64,000 bases of DNA from Candidatus Aminicenantes bacterium. GTDB lineage: Bacteria > Acidobacteriota > Aminicenantia > Aminicenantales > Aminicenantaceae. The stretch covers positions 228,499 to 292,498 of the forward strand of contig WVZL01000016.1 of assembly GCA_011772495.1 (NCBI GenBank). Reading direction: 5' to 3'. The notes under the pieces were generated by a model. The model saw only the letters and a list, made by a program, of their open reading frames with translations. It ran no database searches and was not told the DNA's origin. Below, one piece after another: positions 1-12,469 of the stretch; within the stretch, counting starts at the first letter, position 1; the number at the start of each line of letters is the position of its first letter. The position numbers were made by a program, and so were the translations under genes.

Positions 1-278
1 GGGATGAAACTTCTAAAACAGGCCCAGCAGGCTGGTATAAAAAACACAAGACTTTCTGCTCAGCTCCATAAAATCTACGGCTTACGATAGATCTAGCCCA
101 CCAATTAACAGGTTTATAAGAGCCCAAGGGTAGAATAATCCAGGTGTTTAAGAGTCCAGGTGCATAAGAAATAAAAAAATTCACCCCGCAATTCACCACA
201 AGAGGGGATTGACCTATCCTGGAAGCTCTGCCAAAATCCTTCCTAAGAAACAAGATGAATCATAAAAAGGGAATCTAA

Positions 279-821
279 GTGAAAAAAGACGGGTTCACGG
301 TATGGGAATTGATAGTCGCATTAGTGATTTTAGGCCTTCTCCTGGCTGTATTGATTCCTCTCTATCTGAACGCCAAACAGAGAGCTACGCAGAGATCGAC
401 CATGGCTGATATGCGGATGTGGGGAGAAGCCGTGGCCCTCTATATCGAGGAGAATTCCGTTGCTCCCCCTAGCCCAAGAGGCATGCTCAATTACAAAAAA
501 ACGATCATAAAAGAGCTGACGCCTTACCTCAAAGCCATTCGCGTCGTAGACTGGTGGGGTCACTTCTTTTACGCGTGGACAAGAGAGGGTGACAACTGGT
601 ATGGAATACCGGCCACCACCGATAAAGATTTCATCATCGCTTCCCGCGGAAAAGAAGGACTTCAAGAGGGCTGGAAATACGAACCGAAAAACCCTGAGTC
701 AGGATATTTTGAAATAAATAAGTATAAAGATTTCGAGAGAGACCTGGTTTTCTGGAATAATAAATTTATTCGCTGCCCAAAATCAAAAAAGCAACCCGCT
801 GGGTCTGAGAGTGTAAACTGA
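279..821 (+). CDS. Prepilin-type N-terminal cleavage/methylation domain protein (type IV pilin / GspG-like pseudopilin)
   Basis: The N-terminus MKKDG|FTVWELIVALVILGLLLAV fits the class III signal: a Gly at the cleavage site, Phe at +1, Glu at +5, then a hydrophobic helix. It uses a GTG start. The rest is a soluble domain of about 150 aa. Confidence 0.8.
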   Translation: MKKDGFTVWELIVALVILGLLLAVLIPLYLNAKQRATQRSTMADMRMWGEAVALYIEENSVAPPSPRGMLNYKKTIIKELTPYLKAIRVVDWWGHFFYAWTREGDNWYGIPATTDKDFIIASRGKEGLQEGWKYEPKNPESGYFEINKYKDFERDLVFWNNKFIRCPKSKKQPAGSESVN

Positions 822-864
822 AAATCTATTTATCGAACGAGACATCTGATTTACTTCGTATCAA

Positions 865-2775
865 ATGAAAGCCAGAACGACAAGGATGAAAGAAGGAGAG
901 TTCAACTCAAGAAGGGAATTTCTGTTTTCCTTTTTGGCCGGATTAGTCTTGAGCACGGGTTTTTGGGTGGTAGAAGTTGCCCTCTTTCTTATCTCCAAAC
1001 TCCGCCAGCCTGGAATCTGGTTCTACCTGCCCCTTAAAATCTGGCTTCTTTACTTAAGTACAGGAATAACTTTGGCTGCTCTCAGCTGGATAGCGAGTCT
1101 ATTAGTCTTAAAGAGAGGCAAACGCACCTTAGATAAATTCAGGAGTGTGTTCGGCTCGATATTCATTTCTTCTTTTTTAACCATATATTTGTTGGCCCTT
1201 TATCAACGAGTTTTTCATCATTTTTTGGAAGGAATTTTTTACTTTCTCAATATGCTAATCATCCTGCTCATTTCTGTATTAGTTGGGTGGCTGCTATCCA
1301 GATCCCCACGGCGAATTGCCAAACTCTTAAAAATTTCGCTCATTTCTGTTGCTGCGAGTGCTTCTTTTCTCATCCTTTTCCTGACGGTTTTTGATATCAA
1401 TGCCAAATTCTTTCCTAAAGTCACTGCTGGCTATCAGCGTCATGCTCAGTCCAAGCCCAATGTCGTGCTCATCATCATAGATGCGCTAAGAGCCGACCAT
1501 CTCAGCTGTTTGGGATACAGCAAAATTGAAACGCCGAATATCGACCGGATTGCCCGCGAAGGCGTTCTCTTTGCCGATTGCATTGCTCAGGCTCCTTGGA
1601 CTTTGCCCAGCATGGGTTCGATTTTGACCTCGAGATACCCTTCCCAGCATGGAGCTGAGATGCAGCAGATCAGAAAAGGCCTTAACCCTGATGATGTGAT
1701 TGTCCTAAGAGAGGGATTCCTTTATGAAGAAAATACAACCTTAGCCGAACTCCTTAAAGAAGATGCTTACTATACCCTAGCGCTTCAACCGAATATCACT
1801 GCTGGTACCTCGGTCGGATTTAATCAAGGATTTGATTTTCACTTTGACTGTCATAAATACAAAAACCTGCTCCTTGAGAGGATCGCGGGCTGGATATCAA
1901 ACAGAAAAATTTCCCGAGTGTTCTATCCAAGTTTTAAATACGCCAAGGATGAAAAAGTCGTAAATTATATGAAAAACTGGGTAGAAATCAATCATCATAA
2001 GCAATTTTTCATGAGCATTCTTCTTTTTGATTGTCATGAATATCATCTGAAAGAAAGAGTAAAGAAAGAGAAATATTATATTCCATCAGTGGAGCTTTAT
2101 GATAACGAGATCAAGAAAACCGATGAGCATATCGGAGAAATTTATGATTTTCTGAAGAAAATGGGCATTCTTGACCAGACAATACTCGTTCTGCTCTCTG
2201 ATCATGGCGAAGAATTCGGAGACCACGGGGGATATGACAGAGGATACGAGTATGAATATGACAGCGGAAAAATGCACGCTCACACCTTATATGATGAAAT
2301 CCTCCGCATTCCGTTGATCATCAGATACCCTAAAAAAATTAAGGGAAATAAGATAGTGAATCAACAAGTCAGAAGCATCGATATACTGCCAACGATCCTT
2401 TCCCTCCTGGATATCTCTTATGAGGGAACATTCGAGGGCCTTGATTTGTCCAGGAATAATTTTACCCCAGAAGACAACCTTAAGGCCTACAGCGAATCCA
2501 TCCTCGAGGGCGCCGAAAAGAAATCTTTAAGGACTAAGGAGTGGAAGTTGATCTACCATCCCGTAAGTCAGAGATATGAATTGTACAATCTTGCCCAAGA
2601 CCCTGAAGAGAAGGTGAACTTGGTCCGCCAAGAGGAGCGAGTCTTCGCTTCCCTTAAAAATGAATTGTTCTCCTGGATGGAAAGGATGCCCAAAGAGGAA
2701 ACCAAGGCCAAGAAGAAGCGCAAATTATCTGAAGAGGAAATTGAGGCTCTAAAAGCTCTAGGATACATAAAATAA
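865..2775 (+). CDS. Membrane-anchored sulfatase-family protein (alkaline phosphatase superfamily), with Thr in place of the formylglycine Cys/Ser
   Basis: The N-terminal ~190 aa is multi-TM. The catalytic domain follows: VVLIIIDALRADHL, TPNIDRIAREGVLF, APWTLPSMGSILTSRYPSQHG and LLSDHGEEFGDHG. The canonical C/S-x-P-S-R motif reads T-L-P-S-M here. Confidence 0.8.
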   Translation: MKARTTRMKEGEFNSRREFLFSFLAGLVLSTGFWVVEVALFLISKLRQPGIWFYLPLKIWLLYLSTGITLAALSWIASLLVLKRGKRTLDKFRSVFGSIFISSFLTIYLLALYQRVFHHFLEGIFYFLNMLIILLISVLVGWLLSRSPRRIAKLLKISLISVAASASFLILFLTVFDINAKFFPKVTAGYQRHAQSKPNVVLIIIDALRADHLSCLGYSKIETPNIDRIAREGVLFADCIAQAPWTLPSMGSILTSRYPSQHGAEMQQIRKGLNPDDVIVLREGFLYEENTTLAELLKEDAYYTLALQPNITAGTSVGFNQGFDFHFDCHKYKNLLLERIAGWISNRKISRVFYPSFKYAKDEKVVNYMKNWVEINHHKQFFMSILLFDCHEYHLKERVKKEKYYIPSVELYDNEIKKTDEHIGEIYDFLKKMGILDQTILVLLSDHGEEFGDHGGYDRGYEYEYDSGKMHAHTLYDEILRIPLIIRYPKKIKGNKIVNQQVRSIDILPTILSLLDISYEGTFEGLDLSRNNFTPEDNLKAYSESILEGAEKKSLRTKEWKLIYHPVSQRYELYNLAQDPEEKVNLVRQEERVFASLKNELFSWMERMPKEETKAKKKRKLSEEEIEALKALGYIK

Positions 2776-2837
2776 TTCTAAAATGAGTCATTTCGTTCAC
2801 CCCCAGACCGTACAGCCCCTGGATTCTTAAACAGCCA

Positions 2838-4439
2838 ATGCGAGAGAAAAAAACCTATTCCCTGATTCTGCTGGCCCTTATCATAGCCGCCTTTCATCAG
2901 GGTCTTTTCTTAAACTGGACCAACGACGATGCGTACATTTCCTACCGGTACGCACAAAATATAAAAGCAGGAAAGGGATTGGTCTTCAATCCCGGTGAAA
3001 AGGTGGAGGGTTTTTCCAATTTCCTCTGGGTGATCATCCTAGCTTCCTTCAATCTCCTCGGCATTTCATCCCTTCTAGCCTCCAAAATCCTCTCTTTTTG
3101 CCTTTCCTGGCTATTGATACTTCTCCTCTTCAAAACTGGGCTGGTCTTGGGGCTAGACAAATTCTCGGCCTGTCTTTGTGCCTTAGCCTTTTCCTTCTCC
3201 AGCAGCCTGGCTTATTTTGCGATGTCAGGATTGGAAACGATATTTTATACTCTTCTTTTGCTACTCAGTATACTCATCAACGAAAAATACCAACAAGAAC
3301 CCAATATAAAATCACTCTTTCTTCTGTACAGCGCCCTACTGGCGGCAGCGCTCACTCGGCCTGAAGGCCTTCTCTTTCTTCTAATGTCTTCAGGTTACCA
3401 TCTCCTGAAAAAAATCATTCCAGGAAAAGGGATTCGGCTAAAGAATATCCTTCAAATCCAATTATTATTCCTTTTCTTATATGCTTCTCTCATTCTCCTC
3501 AGACATTGGTATTACGGGGACCTACTGCCCAATACATTCTATGCTAAGCCTCAAGGGACATTCGTTGAAATCGGGTACAGCGCTTTCTTCTCCAATTTCA
3601 TCAATGCTCTATTCTCTGGATCCTTTCTCCTGATTCCCCTACTTTTCCTCTTCACTAAGAGGAGATACCTAACAAAATATCTTTACCCTCTTCTCTTCTG
3701 CCTCGGACAAATGGTCTTCATGTCCTATGCTGGGGACTGGATGGCCTTTGGCCGCTTCTTCATGCCAGTTCTGCCGATAGTGTTGGTCTTGACCTTTGTT
3801 CTTCTAGGTTTGATCAAGGTGAATTCAGAAAAATCGAGCGTGAAGCTGGCCTTGAAATTTATTTCTGTCTACCTTTTAGCGATTTTGGCCGGGTTAAATG
3901 CCTTCCAGACAGGAAAAGCCCTGCATAACCAAGACGCCTATCCCTACCTAGTCATGAATTCTTCCCTGCTTATTCAGACTGGGAAATGGCTGAACCAGGC
4001 TTTTCCGCCAGAAACCGTCCTCTCTCTGCGCAGGCAGGGTGCTGTGCCCTATTATTCAGGAATGAAATCTATCGATATCCTGGGACTTACCGAAAAGGAA
4101 ATCGCCAGCACATTGTATAACGAGAAAGATGCCCTAAAAGCAAACAAAACCAACGCCGAATTCATCCTAAGGCAGAGACCTGAGGTGGTGATCCTGTTCT
4201 CCTCTGTTTCCCTTTATGACGGTTGGATGTATGATGAATCCAATCCAGAAGATAGATTTTTTCATCTTGAATATCTCCTTTACCAAGGAGCAGTCCGAGC
4301 AGGTTACCAGGTTCTGAATTCAATACCCTTCGGGAAGAGTGAAACAATGCACATTCTGGTTGCCTCAAGTGAAGATTTATCAAACTTAAGAACAAGCTCA
4401 GAACAACTGGCCGAGAAATTATCGTTGCCGAGAGAATAG
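2838..4439 (+). CDS. GT-C fold, polyprenyl-phosphate-sugar-dependent glycosyltransferase-like integral membrane protein
   Basis: It is a polytopic membrane protein of more than 10 hydrophobic segments. The acidic motif NWTNDDAYISYRYAQNIKAGKGLVFNPGEKVEGFSNFLW follows TM1, which is typical of ArnT/Emb/Aft-like GT-C enzymes. It has a soluble C-terminal domain of about 150 aa. Confidence 0.55.
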   Translation: MREKKTYSLILLALIIAAFHQGLFLNWTNDDAYISYRYAQNIKAGKGLVFNPGEKVEGFSNFLWVIILASFNLLGISSLLASKILSFCLSWLLILLLFKTGLVLGLDKFSACLCALAFSFSSSLAYFAMSGLETIFYTLLLLLSILINEKYQQEPNIKSLFLLYSALLAAALTRPEGLLFLLMSSGYHLLKKIIPGKGIRLKNILQIQLLFLFLYASLILLRHWYYGDLLPNTFYAKPQGTFVEIGYSAFFSNFINALFSGSFLLIPLLFLFTKRRYLTKYLYPLLFCLGQMVFMSYAGDWMAFGRFFMPVLPIVLVLTFVLLGLIKVNSEKSSVKLALKFISVYLLAILAGLNAFQTGKALHNQDAYPYLVMNSSLLIQTGKWLNQAFPPETVLSLRRQGAVPYYSGMKSIDILGLTEKEIASTLYNEKDALKANKTNAEFILRQRPEVVILFSSVSLYDGWMYDESNPEDRFFHLEYLLYQGAVRAGYQVLNSIPFGKSETMHILVASSEDLSNLRTSSEQLAEKLSLPRE

Positions 4440-4440
4440 C

Positions 4441-5742
4441 ATGGGCTTTACTTCCTTGAAGATGATACTGAAAAAAGAGATTAAAAAAGAAGAGATCTAC
4501 AGTTTCATCGATAGGATCGTCTATAGCCGCTTTTTCAAAAAGAAATTCTTTCTGGTGGCTTTCACCATCCTCTTGCTGATCATCTTCTGGTTTCAAGTCT
4601 TGCCTCATTTTTATACCTGGGATACGGATTCTCCTTCCTTCTACACGGCCGCTAAGGGAACCCTTGAACATGTCAATATTTACGATCAGAAAGAGTTCCA
4701 AACATTGGCCAATTCTCTATTTGGCCGAAGCCTAGTCGTATATCCCTACCTCTACTGGCCGATACTGGCTCAACTTTATGCCCCGTTGACCGTGCTTGGT
4801 TATTCGGCCTATTCGCAGTTCATACTCATCCTGAACATCCTTCTACTTTTCCTCTCCATGTATTTGATTTATTCCCTGCTGGAGCTTAAGAACAGAAAAA
4901 CAAACCTCCCGCTGGTATTTCTTTTCTTGACAATCTTAGTGAACAACCCTCTGGAAACAACTCTCCACCATGGGCAGGTCAACATCTTGGTCTTTGTGCT
5001 CATTCTTCTCGCCGCGTGGTTATTGAAATACGACCATGAGTATGCCTCTTCTTTATTGTTATGCCTGGCTGTTTACATAAAAATATACCCTATCCTCTTT
5101 TTGATCCTGTTCGTCTTCCAGAAGAGATACAGATACCTGGTTTACTCGGTCATCAACTCCATAGCCATTTTCTTGGTCTCAGTTCTCCTTTTCTCGCTGG
5201 ATTCATGGCTTGAATTCGTCAGGATGGGTTTAGGCAATCTTTTCTACGGAACAAAACCTGAATTTTTCTTTGATTATAACGCCCAATGGGGAAACTGTTC
5301 CCTCAACGGCTTTATTTCCCAAATTTTCATAAAATATGATATATCCCGAGGCTATGTTATGCCGATAGTCCTCGTTCTCCTTATCATTTGTTTTTTCTTG
5401 TTCAAATCTAAAATCAAGCAACTTTTGAAGAGCAAAGACCTTAATCTGGATATCTCCTTTATCCTCCCCTTGAGTCTAATTTTTTCGACAATTTCCTGGA
5501 ATCATCATTACATTATTATGATCTTTCCCCTAAATTTTCTGTTCTATAGAATCATTTCGGAAAGAAGGTATAATTATCTGCTTCCCTGTTTGTTCTTCGC
5601 CTATACAATTCTCCTCCATCCTCGCGGTGGGGGATTTCCCTTCAACCAGATTCTGTTTTTCTCTACGGTTCTTTTCCTAGGTCTATTGTATCTCTATCAT
5701 TTCACCAGGAGTTCGTTGAACCGAAGAACAGAAAAAATATAA
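4441..5742 (+). CDS. DUF2029 / GT87-like (PimE-type) polyprenyl-phosphate-dependent glycosyltransferase membrane protein
   Basis: It is polytopic and carries HHGQVNILVFVLILLAAWLL and YIKIYPILFL segments, which are characteristic of DUF2029/GT87. Its start lies 2 nt after the upstream stop, suggesting translational coupling. Confidence 0.55.
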   Translation: MGFTSLKMILKKEIKKEEIYSFIDRIVYSRFFKKKFFLVAFTILLLIIFWFQVLPHFYTWDTDSPSFYTAAKGTLEHVNIYDQKEFQTLANSLFGRSLVVYPYLYWPILAQLYAPLTVLGYSAYSQFILILNILLLFLSMYLIYSLLELKNRKTNLPLVFLFLTILVNNPLETTLHHGQVNILVFVLILLAAWLLKYDHEYASSLLLCLAVYIKIYPILFLILFVFQKRYRYLVYSVINSIAIFLVSVLLFSLDSWLEFVRMGLGNLFYGTKPEFFFDYNAQWGNCSLNGFISQIFIKYDISRGYVMPIVLVLLIICFFLFKSKIKQLLKSKDLNLDISFILPLSLIFSTISWNHHYIIMIFPLNFLFYRIISERRYNYLLPCLFFAYTILLHPRGGGFPFNQILFFSTVLFLGLLYLYHFTRSSLNRRTEKI

Positions 5743-5803
5743 TCAGCAGCCGACTCTTAAGATTTCATTCAGGGAAGGAAGAGGTTGAAATTAAATGAGG
5801 CCT

Positions 5804-6880
5804 TCAATATCTCTGCCACAGACCGCCCCATTCTGTCTTGCGAAACTCTTTTATCCTTTTTCGTCCCACCGTGGGATACCAGAGAAAATCATGATAGAGA
5901 TTGCTGGCCAGAGGAGCCCAAACGATCAAGGGCGTGTGCAGGAGAAGCTTCTCCAGGGGCTTGAGAAAACCTTTTCTCAGCATCTGATCACCCCAGATAA
6001 CTACACTTCTCTTTACTCTGAACTGGAAATTGACCTCAGAGATGTCCTCGCCGATGACTTCTATTTCCCTAGGGTCACCAACTCCCAATCCTTTCTCATG
6101 GCACATCCTTAGGTAAGGAATGTTCAGCGGCTCAAACCCCATGATTTGGGCTGATATGGCATCGATGGCTACCGAATCTGAACTGGCCAGGATGAAATTC
6201 TTGATCTTGGGTTTCATGGTCCTGGGACCGGCTCCGTCACCACAAACCGTTCCATCCATCACACAAAATATTCCAGGGTGGAGCTCTTGCTGCATGATGA
6301 GCAAATCCACCAGGACTTCATGAATATATTTATGGGCAAAATGTCTGACTTCCTTCAGTAGGCCTCCGAAAGCATTCTTGATGGCTCCGGTGGTCATCGA
6401 ATGGCCGTGGGTCTTGACAGTAGGAAGATGAATGACATTTTTTCCGATGAACATCTTGGGAATCTCGATTCCTTCCGGAAAAATCTGATTTAATCTCAGC
6501 AATTTGTTCTTGAATTCGTACTTAACCCATTCGACATCAGGTAGAGGAAAATATTTCAGATCATGTTTTTGCAGTATGGGAGTCCACTTGTTATTCTTGG
6601 CCCCCTTTACCGGATTGGTGACCACAGTCTTGTTCTCGACCGGGAATAGCATTTCCTTCTGGTATCCATCCTGTAAGAGGGTCCTGACGACTCCTTCTAG
6701 CTGCCAGGGCTGGCTGGAACAGGAGGGGAAATACTTTGTCCAGGACAGATTGAGTTTAATTAAAGTATCGGTATTTTTAGGAACAGAATCCTTATAATCC
6801 ACTGCCTGCATCAATTTCTGGTAATCATCGAGAATTGTCTCGGGAGAGGTCTTCAAGACCGCGACTTTCGATTTCAGCAT
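5804..6880 (-). CDS. DUF362 domain-containing protein
   Basis: The protein begins KVAVLKTSPETILDDYQKLM, followed by KLNLSW and HLPTVKTHGHSMTTGAIKNAFGGLL. This layout is typical of DUF362. It abuts the upstream UbiA-family gene with no gap. Confidence 0.6.
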   Translation of the reverse strand: MLKSKVAVLKTSPETILDDYQKLMQAVDYKDSVPKNTDTLIKLNLSWTKYFPSCSSQPWQLEGVVRTLLQDGYQKEMLFPVENKTVVTNPVKGAKNNKWTPILQKHDLKYFPLPDVEWVKYEFKNKLLRLNQIFPEGIEIPKMFIGKNVIHLPTVKTHGHSMTTGAIKNAFGGLLKEVRHFAHKYIHEVLVDLLIMQQELHPGIFCVMDGTVCGDGAGPRTMKPKIKNFILASSDSVAIDAISAQIMGFEPLNIPYLRMCHEKGLGVGDPREIEVIGEDISEVNFQFRVKRSVVIWGDQMLRKGFLKPLEKLLLHTPLIVWAPLASNLYHDFLWYPTVGRKRIKEFRKTEWGGLWQRY

Positions 6881-7759
6881 TTACCTAGCGCTAAGATAAA
6901 GAATAATAACTGCGGCAGCTATCCAAAGAAAAATATCGATCAAGAGAGGTTTGTCTTTGATGATCAGAGCTTCGGGGCTGCCTCCTTCGGATTTCTGATG
7001 AATGAGGTAAAGATAGCGAAAGATGCCGTAAAGGACAAAAGGGACGGTAAAGATGAGATTAGATGTTCCGAACTTGGTCACGGTTTCTTCAGAAATGGTG
7101 TAAAGGCAGTAGGCAATCACCGTGGAGGCAGTCACCACGGCGATCATCTGGTCCAACAGGTAGGGGCTGTATTCTTCAAGAATCGGGCGGTGATCGCTGG
7201 CTTCATCCTCGAGCAGGACAAGCTCGTGTCTTCTCTTGCTCAAAGCCAGGAAAAGGGCCAGCAGGATAGTGCAGATAAGAAGCCAGGAAGATAATGACAC
7301 CTCTATAGCCAGCCCTCCAGCCACCACGCGGATGAGGAAGCCCAGCGCAACCACAAATACATCGAGGATGACGATGTGCTTCAGCTTGAGGGAATAAGCC
7401 ATTTGAATCAAGAAATAGACCAGGATAATGATGAAGTAATTCTTATTCAGGGTGAAGGCCGAGCTAAAACCCAGTAATCCAAGGATGACTATCATCAGAA
7501 GGGCCGTTGACTTCTTGATCTTTCCTGAAGCAATAGGCCTTTTAGATTTTAGGGGATGGAGTTTATCCTCCTCCAGGTCTTTCAGGTCGTTAAAAACATA
7601 CAGAGCGCTGGAAATAAGGCAGAAGGCGCTGAAAGCTATAGTGGTTTTTAAAAGTAGAGGAAGGTTAAAGATGTTCTGAGAAAAGATCAAGGCAGCGTAA
7701 ATGAAAAAATTCTTTGTCCACTGGTGAGGACGCATGGACCGGATGATATCTTTGATCAT
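6881..7759 (-). CDS. UbiA-family decaprenyl-phosphate 5-phosphoribosyltransferase-like enzyme (Rv3806c/DPPR synthase subfamily)
   Basis: From memory it aligns block by block with M. tuberculosis Rv3806c. RPHQWTKN matches RPRQWVKN. YVFNDLKDLEEDKLHPLKSKRPIASG matches YLVNDVRDVEADREHPTKRFRPIAAG. QMAYSLKLKH..LIRVVAGG matches QLAYCFGLKH..LIRAIAGG. LEEYS matches LESYT. Confidence 0.8.
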   Translation of the reverse strand: MIKDIIRSMRPHQWTKNFFIYAALIFSQNIFNLPLLLKTTIAFSAFCLISSALYVFNDLKDLEEDKLHPLKSKRPIASGKIKKSTALLMIVILGLLGFSSAFTLNKNYFIIILVYFLIQMAYSLKLKHIVILDVFVVALGFLIRVVAGGLAIEVSLSSWLLICTILLALFLALSKRRHELVLLEDEASDHRPILEEYSPYLLDQMIAVVTASTVIAYCLYTISEETVTKFGTSNLIFTVPFVLYGIFRYLYLIHQKSEGGSPEALIIKDKPLLIDIFLWIAAAVIILYLSAR

Positions 7760-7922
7760 CGGATTAACTTTCTATCTTTATATCTTTTTTCACTCAATAA
7801 TTCAAATAAACTCATTGGGGTCAGGCCTTTATAATTCTTATAATTGTTTGGGTTTGACATATTGAATCATTTTTTTTTAACTTCAATTCAAAAAGTCAAA
7901 AAGGCCTAATCCTATTGTATTT

Positions 7923-8888
7923 CTAGTCTGATCCCGTTGTTTTCGTTGTTTTCAGAAAAAAGCGATATCCCGACCGAGTGAGATAAACGCCGGCAAAAAT
8001 GATCAAAGCCCCCATTATTTGCAGAAGAGTCAACTTTTCGGAAAGAAAGATATAAGCAGATATGACTGCAAAAACTGGAGTAATATTCCCGTAGATGGCT
8101 GTCTTGCTGTTTCCCACCCGCTTTACAGATGCATACCAGATGACATAGGAAATAGCTATGGCAAAAAGGCCGGAGTAGACAAGAGCAGCCCAGGCCTGAA
8201 AAGACACTTCATTCCAGCCGAGCTGCATTATATCTTTGGCTGAAAAAGGGAGATAAAAAAATGTTCCGACAGCCAGAGTAAGCGTTGTGAATTTCAGGGG
8301 AGGTATTCTCTGCAGGAGGGGCTTCGAAAAAACTGTATAGATGGCCCAAGAAATGTTCCCGGCTAGGATTAAAAAATCTCCCCTTAAGCTCTGCCATTCA
8401 AAACGAAAGGTTCCAGCCTGTTTGGTCATGACGAAATAGAAACCAATAAAGGAAATTAAAATTCCCAGCCATCCTGCCCAATGTATCTTCTCGTGCTTTA
8501 AAGAGGTGCTCAACAGAGCCACGAATACAGGGGTCATGGCCATGACGAGGGAAGTGTTGGAAGCGGTCGTCCAATTCAATCCGTGGATGAAAAACAACTG
8601 GAAGATCGTATTGCCGATCAGGCCGAGAACAAAAATTTTCCATAAATCCGATCTTGGGATCGAGAAACCTTCCCGGCTGATCAAAAGAATAATTATTAAG
8701 ATTATGGAGGCAAAAAGCAAACGAATCCCGTTGAACCCCAAAGGAGAGAATTCCCGAAGCGCTATCTTGACAAAAGAGAAGTTCACCGCCCAGAGCAATA
8801 CAGCTACCAGCATGAAAACATCGGTGCCGCCAAACTTCTTGGGTTCTTCCATGTGAAAGGAGAAATATAGCATAACTAGCCTGGCCAA
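7923..8888 (-). CDS. EamA/DMT superfamily transporter
   Basis: It has about 10 TM segments in two EamA-like halves and reads like the drug/metabolite transporter family (FSFVKIALREFSPLGFNGIRLL ...). The true start may be the internal Met at MEEPKKF. Confidence 0.8.
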   Translation of the reverse strand: MARLVMLYFSFHMEEPKKFGGTDVFMLVAVLLWAVNFSFVKIALREFSPLGFNGIRLLFASIILIIILLISREGFSIPRSDLWKIFVLGLIGNTIFQLFFIHGLNWTTASNTSLVMAMTPVFVALLSTSLKHEKIHWAGWLGILISFIGFYFVMTKQAGTFRFEWQSLRGDFLILAGNISWAIYTVFSKPLLQRIPPLKFTTLTLAVGTFFYLPFSAKDIMQLGWNEVSFQAWAALVYSGLFAIAISYVIWYASVKRVGNSKTAIYGNITPVFAVISAYIFLSEKLTLLQIMGALIIFAGVYLTRSGYRFFLKTTKTTGSD

Positions 8889-9098
8889 TAAAAGCTGATT
8901 ATCCGCTCTTGAAGATTCGTTCCAGGTGGCAGAAAGAGATTTTGTATTGTCACACTAAAAAATTTAGCTTATTATCCTATTGCCTTGGATTCCAGGTCTT
9001 TTACTCTGACAGGGATTCTTTCCGTGAATGTGCCTGAGTAACAGAGAATTGTCTTCCTGATGAAGCATTCACAGGTCTTTCCTTGGAGGCCTTAAGAG

Positions 9099-9842
9099 AT
9101 GAACAAAAAAGAATACTATCTCCAAGAACTAAAAAAACTAAAAGACTGGAAACCATACTTACTCCAAGAATCACAACTTCCGGGAAGACGGGCCAACCTT
9201 GAACTGCTGCAAGCAGCCGTGGACCTGGGCAGCGAAAGACTGTTTAATGAATTGAGGAGATACGATGCCCGAAGAGCACCCACCAATTCTCCTTACGAAT
9301 TCCTGGCCATGTGTGGCGTGGTCGGGCTGGGAAAACTCATCATAGAAGGGGAAGAAAGATATTTTAATGAATTGCGCTGCTATGCTTCTGACTCTCGCTG
9401 GCGAATACGCGAAGGCGTCGCCTTTGCCCTGCAAATCGTCGGGAAGAAAAGTCCGAAGAAATTACTGGAAGAAATGGAAGAGTGGAAAAAGGGAAATCCA
9501 TACGAAAAAAGAGCGGTGGCGGCCGGCTTATGCGAACCAGGAATACTGAAGGAAAAATGGTTTATAAAAAGAGTTTTTGAAATGTTAGATACAATGACCT
9601 CTTCCGTAGAAAACATAAAAGATCGCCAAGATGAAGGATTTCGAGTGTTAAAGAAAGGATTGAGCTACTGCTGGAGTGTGGCTGTTGTGTCCTTTCCCCA
9701 AGAGGGAAAGAAATATATGGAAAAATGGATACAGTACAAAGACCAGGATATTGGGTGGATAATGAAAGAGAATCTGAAGAAGAACAGGCTTCAGAGAATG
9801 GATGCCAGCTGGGTTGCAGGAATGAAGGCCAACCTAGATTGA
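9099..9842 (+). CDS. Hypothetical alpha-helical (HEAT/AlkD-like repeat) protein
   Basis: It is a long ORF with no competing frame and helical-repeat-like sequence (RWRIREGVAFALQ..., EKRAVAAGLCEP). The family assignment is uncertain. Confidence 0.4.
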   Translation: MNKKEYYLQELKKLKDWKPYLLQESQLPGRRANLELLQAAVDLGSERLFNELRRYDARRAPTNSPYEFLAMCGVVGLGKLIIEGEERYFNELRCYASDSRWRIREGVAFALQIVGKKSPKKLLEEMEEWKKGNPYEKRAVAAGLCEPGILKEKWFIKRVFEMLDTMTSSVENIKDRQDEGFRVLKKGLSYCWSVAVVSFPQEGKKYMEKWIQYKDQDIGWIMKENLKKNRLQRMDASWVAGMKANLD

Positions 9843-9896
9843 TAGAATAGCTGTTCTGTCTATTGGAACCAAAAAGGAAAAAAGATTTGATCAGAG

Positions 9897-10325
9897 TTAC
9901 TTTGTCCGGGTCTTGGATCGAGGGAAGTGTGCTTCTACCAAAGATTTCATTCCTCCCCTGGGATTGAACTCTCCGGTGACAGAAGCCCGGACTGGATGAC
10001 AGGCTTTGATGACATCCTCCAATATACGATTGACCGCATTCTCGTAGAAAATGCCCAAGTTTCGGTAAGCCAGGAGGTAATTCTTAAGAGATTTCAGCTC
10101 CAGACAGTTTTTCTTGGGTATGTAACGAATGGTTATTATGCCAAAATCCGGCAGCCCGGTTTTCGGACAGACTGAAGTGAACTCAGGAATCTCTATTTTA
10201 ATTTCATAGTCAGGGAACTGGTTGGGAAAAGTCTCGATCAATGGAAGCTTTTCCTTTAAACCGGCTCGGGCCTCCTTTTCGGTCATTCGAGGCCTTGCAT
10301 TCCCTTTCTTGCTCATTTTCTTCAT
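9897..10325 (-). CDS. queF: NADPH-dependent 7-cyano-7-deazaguanine (preQ0) reductase QueF, type I
   Basis: It carries EFTSVCPKTGLPDFGIITIRYIP, the QueF catalytic Cys motif, and ELKSLKNYLLAYRNLGIFYENAVN...FNPRGG. I chose the start at MKKMSKK. The track ORF extends to 10403 from a TTG, which would add an atypical 26-aa N-terminal extension. Confidence 0.85.
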   Translation of the reverse strand: MKKMSKKGNARPRMTEKEARAGLKEKLPLIETFPNQFPDYEIKIEIPEFTSVCPKTGLPDFGIITIRYIPKKNCLELKSLKNYLLAYRNLGIFYENAVNRILEDVIKACHPVRASVTGEFNPRGGMKSLVEAHFPRSKTRTK

Positions 10326-10684
10326 TTTTTTGGAGTATATAACAACTGAAAAAAGATAACAATCTTCTTCTACTGCCTTCAAGAAACAGATATGATTCAT
10401 CAATCCTCAACTCCTCTTTAATGAATTTAACCCAACAGATGCAATTTTCACCCGAGAGATTTAATATCAATGAACTTTTTAACTAAAATGATTGAGCAGA
10501 ATTTGTCTTAGTAAAATTGGCGATTTTTTAATATAATAGCTCTTCTCTTGGAAGAGATTGGCTACCCTTTTTCTTTAAGGCTCGACAAAGACTTAATTCA
10601 AAGCTAGTATCGCTACGGGTCATCGGAACACAGATTAATGAAGAACTTGAGCTTGTGCTTATTCCATCATTGAGGGAGTTTAGC

Positions 10685-10888
10685 ATGAAAGAATGCAACA
10701 GCGAAAAAAATATCGAGAAATGCAATTGCACCTGGGAGCCGTGCAGCCGCAAAGGCGTCTGCTGCGAATGTCTCCAGTATCACTGGAGCATGAACGAGCT
10801 CCCCGCCTGCTTGTTTCCGGATGAGGTGGAAAGAACCTATAACCGATCTCTAAGAAGATTTATCGAAGTTTGCAAAGACAGGGCTTAA
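10685..10888 (+). CDS. Small Cys-rich cytoplasmic protein (DUF6485-like)
   Basis: It contains CNCTWEPCSRKGVCCECLQYHWSMNELPACLF, with 7 Cys in 30 aa. GAGGGAG lies 7 nt upstream of the MKECNS start. Confidence 0.5.
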   Translation: MKECNSEKNIEKCNCTWEPCSRKGVCCECLQYHWSMNELPACLFPDEVERTYNRSLRRFIEVCKDRA

Positions 10889-10897
10889 CAAAGCACC

Positions 10898-11845
10898 TTG
10901 AACTCAATGCAAGAAAAAAGCACTGCGGTTTGTGTCTACGGCCCTGTTCCTTCCCGACGCCTGGGATTTTCCTTGGGCATTGACATCATCCCCGCTAAAA
11001 CCTGCTCCCTGGACTGCATCTACTGCCAATTGGGCCCCACCACCAAAAAAACTCTCCAAAGAAAAGAATATATCTCTTGGAAAAAGATTACGTCCCAAAT
11101 TAAAAGTATCCTTGCCTCGAGGCAGCGGATCGATTACCTGACTTTTTCTGGCTCTGGAGAGCCAACTCTAAATTCAGCCTTAGGAAAACTCATCTCAGAA
11201 ATCAAGAAAATAACCTCCATCCCAGTGGCTGTCTTGACTAACAGCTCTCTCCTTTCTCGAAAAAGCGTCAGGGAAGCTTTAATGGAGGCAGACGTAGTCG
11301 TTCCCTCTTTGGATGCCGCCACCCAAGAGGTCTTTATTAACCTCAACCGGCCGCATCCATCCCTTAAAGCCGAGAAAATCATAACGGGATTGAAAAAGTT
11401 TCGCCAGGAATTCAAGGGTTCTATCTGGGTCGAGGTCATGCTGGTGAAAAATATCAACGATTCTCCTTCTCATATCCAGAAACTCAAGGAAGTCATCGAG
11501 GAGATAAAACCTGAGAAAGTCCAGCTTAACACGGTGGTGCGTCCTCCCTCAGAAGAATTTGCCCGCCCTTTAAGTTCAGAAGAGCTGGAAAAAATAAGGG
11601 ACGCTTGGGGCGAAAACTGCGAGATAATTGCTGAATTCGAAAAGAAGATACAAATACCTCGAGAGGCAAATCAGGAAGAAGCTATTCTCTCCATGATTCA
11701 GCGAAGGCCTGTAACTCTCTCGGACATTTCCACCTCTTTAGGAAAGGACAAGAATGAAATCAGAAAGCACCTTGGCGCTCTCCTCAAAGAAGGAAAAATC
11801 AAACTGGTCATCCACAAGAAAATAAAATACTACGAGCCAATATAA
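10898..11845 (+). CDS. Radical SAM protein (COG0731-like) with a C-terminal winged-helix-like tail
   Basis: It begins VYGPVPSRRLGFSLGIDIIPAKTCSLDCIYCQ, which contains the CxxxCxxC motif, and has FSGSGEPT. The C-terminal segment is PVTLSDISTSLGKDKNEIRKHLGALLKEGKI. Confidence 0.75.
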   Translation: MNSMQEKSTAVCVYGPVPSRRLGFSLGIDIIPAKTCSLDCIYCQLGPTTKKTLQRKEYISWKKITSQIKSILASRQRIDYLTFSGSGEPTLNSALGKLISEIKKITSIPVAVLTNSSLLSRKSVREALMEADVVVPSLDAATQEVFINLNRPHPSLKAEKIITGLKKFRQEFKGSIWVEVMLVKNINDSPSHIQKLKEVIEEIKPEKVQLNTVVRPPSEEFARPLSSEELEKIRDAWGENCEIIAEFEKKIQIPREANQEEAILSMIQRRPVTLSDISTSLGKDKNEIRKHLGALLKEGKIKLVIHKKIKYYEPI

Positions 11846-11956
11846 TCCTATGAGATTGCTTCGCTCCGTTCGCCATGACAGTCTGAAAAGTTTCTTGCCT
11901 GGATATATAACTTCAAATTGAAAAGCAAAAGGAAATAAATCTTGCGAGGAGTCAGG

Positions 11957-12469
11957 ATGAAGGAAATCAAGGACCTGACAAAGGAAGAACTTCTTGAATT
12001 CCTGACCGACGCTTCAAAAAATTGGCTTGCCCATGACGGCCTCTGGTTTCGTTTGGTCGAAGAGAAGTTTGGCCTCAAAGCAGCCATGGAGCTGGACCGG
12101 AAGGCCTGGGAAAAGTTCACTGTCATCGAGGCCCAAAGGATCATGAAAAGGCTGAACCTGGAACCAGGAGGAGGAATTCCGGCCCTTGTTCAGGCTCTTA
12201 AATTCAGGCTCTACGCGCTCATCAATGTTCAAGAGGTCAAAGAGGTGAGTGGCACTCGCTGTGTCTTCCGGATGAACAGATGCCGGGTGCAGGAGGCAAG
12301 ACAAAGCCAGGGGCTCCCTGATTTTCCCTGTAAAGATGTAGGAATCGTCGAGTACAGCGGATTTGCCAAAACCATAGACTCCCGAATAAAAACCACCTGT
12401 TTAATCTGCCCTCCTGATCCCCATCCTGCCGATGTCTGGTGTGCCTGGGAATTCAGGCTCGAACCTTGA
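11957..12469 (+). CDS. Hypothetical protein (DUF6125-like)
   Basis: It contains NWLAHDGLWFRLVEEKFGLKAAMELDRKAWEKF and a C-terminal Cys pattern. GAGGAG lies upstream of the MKEIKD start. The family recall is tentative. Confidence 0.4.
   Translation: MKEIKDLTKEELLEFLTDASKNWLAHDGLWFRLVEEKFGLKAAMELDRKAWEKFTVIEAQRIMKRLNLEPGGGIPALVQALKFRLYALINVQEVKEVSGTRCVFRMNRCRVQEARQSQGLPDFPCKDVGIVEYSGFAKTIDSRIKTTCLICPPDPHPADVWCAWEFRLEP

Follow-up and report, generated by a model that had tools for sequence, protein, structure and literature searches.

Predicted pentofuranosylation of a type IV pilin or pilin-like protein by a glycosyltransferase module beside a class-wide, probable lipid-pentose operon in Candidatus Aminicenantes

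Introduction

A 64,000-nucleotide stretch of the genome of an uncultured sediment bacterium, a member of Candidatus Aminicenantes in the Acidobacteriota (contig WVZL01000016.1, positions 228,499 to 292,498; here called the window) has close to its left end a pilin-like gene, followed on the same strand by genes for a sulfatase-like enzyme and two GT-C membrane glycosyltransferases, and facing a gene for a UbiA-family protein that resembles the mycobacterial decaprenyl-phosphoribose (DPPR) synthase Rv3806c. Does this locus encode the attachment of a five-carbon furanose sugar to a pilin? In known systems pilin glycans influence phage susceptibility and pilus function, and to our knowledge pilin pentofuranosylation has been demonstrated experimentally in one Pseudomonas lineage only.

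The interpretation favoured here, which we place at even chances of being correct, is that the locus specifies extracytoplasmic, lipid-pentose-dependent pentofuranosylation together with phospho-form modification of a pilin or pilin-like protein, by a module that stands beside a donor operon found across the class. Several features point this way. Both GT-C proteins and the sulfatase-fold enzyme belong to enzyme types that work on the outer side of the membrane, and the content of pilin, GT-C, GT87 and sulfatase-like genes is kept through four different gene orders. The module pilin is in the major-pilin family, and the module abuts a pilus cluster at two related loci. The UbiA protein is of the DPPR-synthase clade, the GT-C is related to AftB and has an invariant DD motif, and GT-C genes recurrently adjoin UbiA-DUF362 gene pairs. 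DprE1 is absent from the sampled genomes of a class in which the UbiA protein is common, and there are precedents in TfpW, PptA and the three-component pentofuranose systems.

Organization of the locus

The six open reading frames previously called from the window sequence stand with their family assignments and with plus-strand intergenic gaps of 43, 62 and 1 nt; a transporter gene lies next to the minus-strand pair. The genes are as follows.

279–821, plus strand: pilin-like protein, 180 aa, with class-III signal motif KKDG/FTVWE; TIGR02532
865–2775, plus strand: sulfatase-fold enzyme, Thr-type, 636 aa, with approximately five transmembrane helices; PF00884
2838–4439, plus strand: AftB-like GT-C, 533 aa, assigned by ortholog profile and predicted fold
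4441–5742, plus strand: GT87-family (PimE-like) GT-C, 433 aa; PF09594
5804–6880, minus strand: DUF362 protein with a predicted LarA-like fold, 358 aa; PF04015
6881–7759, minus strand: UbiA-family protein, DPPR/PPPRS synthase type, 292 aa; NF008977
7923–8888, minus strand: EamA/DMT transporter with ten transmembrane segments; PF00892 at 7.6e-58

The region consists of two units, a putative donor operon (5804–8888, minus strand) and an accessory module (279–5742, plus strand). The DUF362 and UbiA genes have a 0 nt gap, and both converge on the plus-strand genes. Promoter and terminator scans of the locus were at background level, no better than with shuffled sequence, and a search for RNA-sequencing runs that contain this DNA found none. 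For comparison, genomes were sampled from the class (151 species genomes) and loci are labelled L; the flank upstream of the window was read as locus L003.

The putative donor operon

The UbiA protein scores 315 bits against the DPPR synthase equivalog model NF008977 (cut-off 234), and its best match among PDB structures is Rv3806c (8j8j, 1.2e-42), with the next UbiA-family structure at 5e-4. Its NDxxDxxxD...RPIASG motif aligns with that of Rv3806c, as the original prediction had observed, and it does not group with the menaquinone, heme O or chlorophyll enzymes. By these sequence comparisons it is a member of the DPPR-synthase (Rv3806c-type) clade. It covers only positions 192–476 of the fused-type model NF006088 and so is without a fused HAD phosphatase domain. 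The protein is predicted to be a polyprenyl-phosphate 5-phosphoribosyltransferase, and the operon probably makes a lipid-linked five-carbon sugar.

No DprE1 gene is recognisable in the window, as had been noted previously, and this extends to the 3.28 Mb host genome (88% complete), which also has no ALO domain (PF04030), and to the class, in which the DprE1 model NF053785 is above cut-off in 0 of the 151 genomes with a positive Corynebacterium control. A 473-aa FAD_binding_4 protein, the only large one in the genome, was considered as a DprE1 candidate and rejected as GlcD.

UbiA orthologs are present in 114 of the 151 genomes and 46 of 59 genera, always in single copy. In approximately 27 class genomes a DUF362 gene (at least 50% identity) is directly 3′ of UbiA on the same strand, 10–20 nt apart, a tight coupling that bears out the suggested co-occurrence of DUF362 with DPPR-synthase-like genes. 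The longer string queF-EamA-UbiA-DUF362 is kept in L188–L190, L015 and L017. The EamA-UbiA-DUF362 operon is thus near-core in the class and does not belong specifically to the pilin module, and the view of pilin, GT-C and DPPR synthase as one system has to be modified: its ingredients are all there, but the UbiA-DUF362-EamA set is class-wide and the module is an insertion beside it. The EamA protein is a candidate flippase for the lipid-linked pentose.

On the question of whether DUF362 stands in for the missing 5-phosphatase, genomes were compared in which the two genes are apart: UbiA is without an adjacent DUF362 gene in families f8 and f11, where other small genes of unknown function adjoin it and no recognisable phosphatase gene is beside it. 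In one family (L185 2315–11182; also L178 and L181) UbiA is located between pyrD/pyrF and a 251-aa gene of unknown function, which is followed by polyprenyl synthetase and dxs genes, with DUF362 on another contig; in another family of the class it follows ruvA-ruvB and precedes a 202-aa gene of unknown function.

The insertion site

At two related loci (L189 and L190) the queC-queD-queE genes converge on DUF362-UbiA-EamA-queF with a queE/DUF362 gap of only 17–24 nt. This empty site indicates that the window has the same arrangement plus a 5.5-kb four-gene insertion at that point. In the window, queC-queD-queE end 188 nt before the pilin-like gene (L003 16446–18089, in the upstream flank). Two further genes are located beyond EamA.

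9099–9842, between EamA and queF: 247-aa open reading frame without a Pfam domain, with a weak HEAT/NblB-like match, partly conserved in L017
9897–10403: queF

The whole region is bracketed by preQ0/preQ1 genes, with queC-queD-queE on one side and queF on the other.

The same junction contains a GT-C gene alone in L015, L021, L026, L099 and L100, and in L005 the queE junction is occupied by pilin-GT-C-GT87-sulfatase with the UbiA operon elsewhere in the genome. The queE/DUF362 junction is a variable slot that is empty or contains either a GT-C alone or the four-gene module. AftB-like GT-C orthologs are found in 2 of the 151 class genomes (the host and one other), and the module is patchy in the class, unlike the near-core donor operon. 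Three genomes with a GT-C ortholog were checked, of which two have the pilin module, and a UbiA ortholog is present in each of the three.

GT-C genes adjoin UbiA-DUF362 in three independent arrangements: the clade of the window, the GT-C-alone clade, and the distant metagenomic locus L036 (474–6360), in which a partial GT2 gene, UbiA, DUF362 and a GT-C of 30% identity are all co-directional. Downstream on the same strand L036 also contains 462-aa and 130-aa open reading frames that appear B12-binding radical-SAM-like by inspection only, and it includes a second GT-C-like open reading frame, PMT/ArnT-like by inspection.

The glycosyltransferases

The 533-aa GT-C has no Pfam match and is only weakly similar to the AftB model NF041481 (1.9e-6; 26 bits compared to a cut-off of 1050), with only residues 19–266 aligned. 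Its identification required an alignment of orthologs, as a single-sequence GT-C scan of the genome contigs gave nothing. A profile of 35 orthologs searched against all PDB sequences has AftB (9dlf) as its sole match (3.9e-12), and the alignment spans the W-x-x-D-D, RPE and YYG..P.T..AK motifs. In the first outward loop the W27-T-x-D30-D31 motif aligns with WIADD of AftB, and W27, D30 and D31 are invariant in the 35 orthologs. The AlphaFold2 model (mean predicted local distance difference test, pLDDT, 89) gives AftB 9dlf/9dlh as the top Foldseek matches (E 4e-8, TM-score 0.56–0.58), followed by PglB, ALG12, ArnT and STT3, and has a C-terminal periplasmic alpha/beta domain at residues 390–510. 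By profile and by modelled fold the protein is an AftB-like GT-C, although not an AftB ortholog, in line with the GT-C-like designation first given to 2838–4439.

The 433-aa protein matches PF09594 (2.3e-26), and its sole sequence relative in the PDB is PimE (9dm5, 1e-7). Every complete module locus has a GT87 gene beside that for the AftB-like GT-C.

In L015 (10001–11851) the GT-C is called at 616 aa, with a C-terminal extension of ~80 aa that overlaps the opposite-strand DUF362 gene and is probably a read-through or annotation artefact. A distant AftB-like paralog of 29% identity in an 839-aa frame is situated ~3 kb downstream of UbiA-DUF362 in another genome of the host's family (G103:C16, L195, 6689–12853).

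The pilin-like protein and its association with the transferases

The 180-aa protein contains a G/FTVWE prepilin motif, scores above cut-off for TIGR02532 and is GspG-like (1.5e-12). Its identity to candidate major pilins is 36–39%, both for those encoded in the same genome (C8:183943–184458 and C49:119486–120013) and for those of L007, and on sequence similarity it is a paralog within the same family as the major type IV pilins of the host. Of the two own-genome pilin genes, one is next to PilC, 44 kb upstream in the contig that contains the module.

Pilin-like orthologs are located beside the GT-C at no fewer than ten distinct loci (at least L004, L005, L007, L016–L018, L023, L025, L098 and L105) in four gene orders: pilin-sulfatase-GT-C-GT87; pilin-GT-C-GT87, with or without a following sulfatase gene; pilin-sulfatase-GT87-GT-C; and a GT-C convergent on pilin-GT87-sulfatase. 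The proposed synteny of pilin and GT-C genes in related genomes therefore persists, across orthologs down to 40% GT-C identity. In the GT-C ortholog tree the pilin-positive state is on both sides of the deepest splits and the pilin-less loci make up few clades; its well-supported branches require at least three changes of state. In L007 and L008 the module directly adjoins two major pilin genes, PilS/R, PilC, PilT and PilB, with PilX and PilY1 upstream.

The major pilins have Ser/Thr-rich alpha-beta loops and C-terminal tails, and an alpha-1 helix near the consensus. The alpha-beta loop and the C-terminal tail are the classical sites of pilin O-glycosylation. Judged by their sequences, the major pilins appear to be at least equally good acceptor candidates as the module pilin.

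The sulfatase-fold enzyme

The 636-aa protein matches PF00884 (4e-46) over residues 198–517. By inspection five hydrophobic segments precede residue 190, their loops follow the positive-inside rule, and a periplasmic location is predicted for the catalytic domain. The sequence WTLPSM replaces the sulfatase C-x-P-x-R motif, placing a Thr at the position of the formylglycine Cys/Ser. Every module ortholog retains SDHGEE and the W-T-x-P-S motif with its Thr; a distant homolog (L014), by contrast, has the C-x-P-x-R form. Against the phosphoethanolamine transferase model NF028537 the enzyme scores 34 bits (cut-off 500), and its best matches are arylsulfatases and S1 sulfatases. We infer that it adds or remodels a phospho-substituent.

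The DUF362 protein

DUF362 and DUF2088 belong to a common Pfam clan, CL0471 (PMC11770544). Consistent with this shared clan, the protein of the window, which matches PF04015 at 2e-22, adopts a LarA-like fold in its AlphaFold2 model (pLDDT 81), for which the top ten Foldseek matches in the PDB are all LarA-family racemases (E 2e-4, TM-score ~0.4). Its conservation is extreme, with thousands of homologs of more than 70% identity and 4992 representatives at E≤1e-3. Homologs P0241, P0243, P0249, P0255, P0261, P0262 and P0265 contain inteins, most with LAGLIDADG homing endonucleases, and the insertion point is precisely the junction of K156 with T157 (or Cys) in HLPTVK/THGH, the most conserved motif of the subfamily. 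This position suggests that the motif is functionally central and possibly the active site.

The UbiA-linked DUF362 subfamily has two invariant residues, H158 and K168, with a LarA-like spacing; in the wider family they are conserved in 27/40 and 14/40, respectively. Equating them with the catalytic His and cofactor-tethering Lys of LarA (a spacing of 10, as in SHFMAGTSGGRK of the host's own LarA homolog) is unsupported, and hhalign comparisons of DUF362 with that homolog, using shallow and deeper profiles, gave weak and differently placed alignments with H158 and K168 unpaired. The LarA homolog with this motif and LarC are encoded at C21:86836–87462 (L097 1477–2850) and C41:56128–57309, and from these genes the host probably makes the nickel-pincer cofactor. 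Because LarC and a bona fide LarA are both in the genome, the presence of cofactor genes is uninformative on DUF362.

LarA enzymes invert carbons that bear a hydroxyl group, passing through a short-lived keto form; in formal terms DprE1 and DprE2 together achieve the same net reaction. We hypothesize that DUF362 is an epimerase of the lipid-linked pentose, with 5-dephosphorylation as an alternative. The earlier suggestion that DUF362 takes part in donor conversion gains from its coupling to UbiA and from the LarA-like fold, but conservation of the LarA cofactor residues is not demonstrable.

A proposed pathway and its alternatives

In the proposed pathway the UbiA protein would transfer 5-phosphoribose from phosphoribosyl pyrophosphate (PRPP) to polyprenyl phosphate, and DUF362 would process the lipid-linked pentose, most likely by epimerisation at C2 or C3, or else by 5-dephosphorylation. 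The EamA protein would flip the lipid-linked product to the outer face of the inner membrane, where the AftB-like GT-C and the GT87 protein would move the pentofuranose from the lipid donor to Ser/Thr residues of a type IV pilin before it leaves its inner-membrane anchorage. This acceptor may be the module pilin-like protein, the major pilins, or both. A phospho-substituent would be added or remodelled by the Thr-type alkaline-phosphatase-fold enzyme, as the Neisseria PptA does.

A number of observations weigh against this pathway. For the donor, there is no PAP2 or HAD gene near the locus and no phosphatase for the 5-phosphate was found, and a LarA-type Lys/His set is absent from the residues that the wider DUF362 family conserves. 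The link between donor and transferases is weakened by the background frequency of UbiA in the class (75%), which makes its co-presence with the GT-C weak evidence; with GT-C orthologs so much rarer (2/151), the adjacency could equally reflect an insertion hotspot. In other phyla, distant homologs of the GT-C lack a UbiA gene within 10 kb, and the UbiA link is thus not a property of the GT-C family as a whole. The sulfatase-fold domain is nearer to true S1 sulfatases than to EptA/PptA. For the acceptor, the GT-C is without a nearby pilin gene in several clades (the L015 group; L102, L196 and L022; L104), and the N-terminal helix of the module pilin is degenerate, with the assembly-critical Glu5 replaced by His in L005 and by Asn in L105. 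The module pilin also has few conserved Ser/Thr residues, and on inspection its alpha-beta loop is basic and Ser/Thr-poor.

The degenerate N-terminus and the loss of Glu5 raise the option that the module pilin may be an adaptor instead of an acceptor, or both. The strictest form of this, in which the module pilin would be a non-assembling, membrane-retained recruiter or gate and the acceptors would be major pilins encoded elsewhere, is unlikely but deserves serious consideration. Two lineages have no Glu5 in the module pilin, whose alpha-1 helix departs from the major-pilin consensus, the Ser/Thr-rich sites are in the major pilins and not in the basic loops of the module pilins, and in Neisseria the pilin-like PilV modulates PptA-dependent modification of PilE (PMC4010543). 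Set against these points, the case is built on sequence inspection alone, and the major pilin gene of the host genome is 44 kb distant.

Also unlikely is a second alternative, that the same enzymes and donor serve a glycan acceptor, such as lipopolysaccharide O-antigen, an exopolysaccharide or a wall polymer, with the pilin-like protein an accessory or passenger. All characterised three-component systems modify glycans, as does AftB (PMC11127046), and a distant GT-C homolog (L013) is found in a Wzx/Wzy polysaccharide locus; the pilin-less GT-C orthologs and the N-terminal degeneration of the module pilin also fit a glycan acceptor. However, the pilin-like gene is retained through four rearrangements and divergence to 40% identity, the module adjoins the pilus cluster in L007, and the module is not flanked by genes for polysaccharide synthesis in the window.

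A more ambitious version of the pilin pathway combines two statements: that the UbiA-coupled DUF362 is, across the class, a single-protein polyprenyl-phospho-ribofuranose processor (probably a C2/C3 epimerase, possibly a phosphatase) replacing DprE1/DprE2, and that the module is a pilin-decorating machine with a non-assembling guide paralog. Their conjunction is speculative and we think it probably does not hold in full.

That the juxtaposition with UbiA is coincidental, with queE/DUF362 merely a permissive site and the GT-Cs using another lipid donor such as polyprenyl-P-mannose, is improbable: characterised GT87 enzymes are mannosyltransferases of the PimE type, UbiA-DUF362 is near-core and independent of the module, and L005 has the module with its UbiA operon elsewhere, but the closest relative of the 533-aa GT-C is AftB and the adjacency of GT-C and UbiA-DUF362 occurs again in the unrelated L036, in another orientation, and in the GT-C-alone clade.

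If the pilin pathway is correct, pilin pentofuranosylation and lipid-pentose systems reach an uncultured, widespread sediment phylum with different enzymes. The compact, clonable set of 7–8 genes bears on the role of the intein-bearing DUF362 partner of DPPR-type synthases and on that of membrane-anchored Thr-type 'sulfatases'.

Comparison with known systems

The original prediction of pentofuranose pilin glycosylation outside the Actinobacteria is partly supported, and none of the outcomes named in advance as counting against it (a UbiA protein of the menaquinone, heme O or chlorophyll type, GT-C proteins with clear orthologs acting on unrelated substrates, or a pilin-like gene without synteny) was seen; it is no longer novel, given TfpW and the systems described in PMC11127046. 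In Pseudomonas aeruginosa, TfpW puts D-arabinofuranose on pilin; its GT-C gene is beside pilA, and the donor is made via a DPPR synthase, DprE1/E2, a PAP2 phosphatase and a GtrA-like protein (bioRxiv 10.1101/2020.04.19.049825). The locus described here is similar to that system (Pa5196/PA7, PsPA7_6245–6249) in having a GT-C with a DD(x) motif by a pilin gene, a predicted donor derived from a DPPR synthase, and predicted action at the periplasmic face. It differs in architecture, as TfpW is a 646-aa protein with a C-terminal TPR domain and the GT-C here is a 533-aa AftB-like protein with an alpha/beta C-terminus and no Pfam match to TPR. Distant GT-C homologs fused to TPR domains were considered as TfpW-like and set aside; they have a TfpW-like architecture but are not beside pilins. 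The module also contains a GT87 partner and a Thr-type sulfatase-fold enzyme, unlike the TfpW system, and DUF362 and EamA are present in place of DprE1/DprE2, the PAP2 phosphatase and the GtrA-like protein.

The pairing of the two transferases, whose genes are 1 nt apart and translationally coupled, resembles a partnership predicted in mycobacteria between a GT87 protein and a protein-O-glycosylating GT-C (bioRxiv 10.64898/2026.07.15.738315).

PptA is an EptB-like pilin phospho-form transferase of Neisseria, with an activity modulated by the pilin-like PilV (PMC4010543). The 636-aa enzyme resembles PptA in having approximately five N-terminal transmembrane helices, a periplasmic alkaline-phosphatase-superfamily domain, a Thr in the nucleophile position and a genetic tie to a pilin. 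It is unlike PptA in that its domain matches S1 sulfatases at 4e-46 and phosphoethanolamine transferases at 1e-8, without an EptA-type N-terminal match.

In the three-component pentofuranose systems, defined in 2024, PPPRS-PRP works with a MATE flippase and a GT-C of family GT136, and auxiliary epimerases are optional (PMC11127046). As with ORF15/ORF14/ORF12 of Citrobacter youngae O1/O2, the locus described here would combine a PRPP-dependent synthase, a flippase, a periplasm-facing GT-C and an optional epimerase. C. youngae has an ORF15 with a fused HAD phosphatase, a MATE flippase, a GT136 transferase and an O-antigen acceptor (PMC11127046), whereas here the synthase is phosphatase-less, the candidate flippase is of the EamA/DMT type (no MATE gene is present in window positions 1–12000), the transferases are AftB-like and GT87 proteins, DUF362 has a modelled LarA-like fold, and the acceptor is likely a pilin.

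The mycobacterial decaprenyl-phospho-arabinose pathway (Rv3806c, Rv3807c, DprE1/E2 and Rv3805c) is similar in that the UbiA protein is a clear Rv3806c homolog and that, among solved structures, the GT-C is closest to AftB, a terminal beta-1,2-arabinofuranosyltransferase of family GT89. It is different in that the GT-C is not an AftB ortholog, DprE1 is absent among the class genomes, and the host is an uncultured member of the Aminicenantes. TfpW and the three-component systems of 2024 already embody the concept, and the locus described here is a variant with a different enzyme set.

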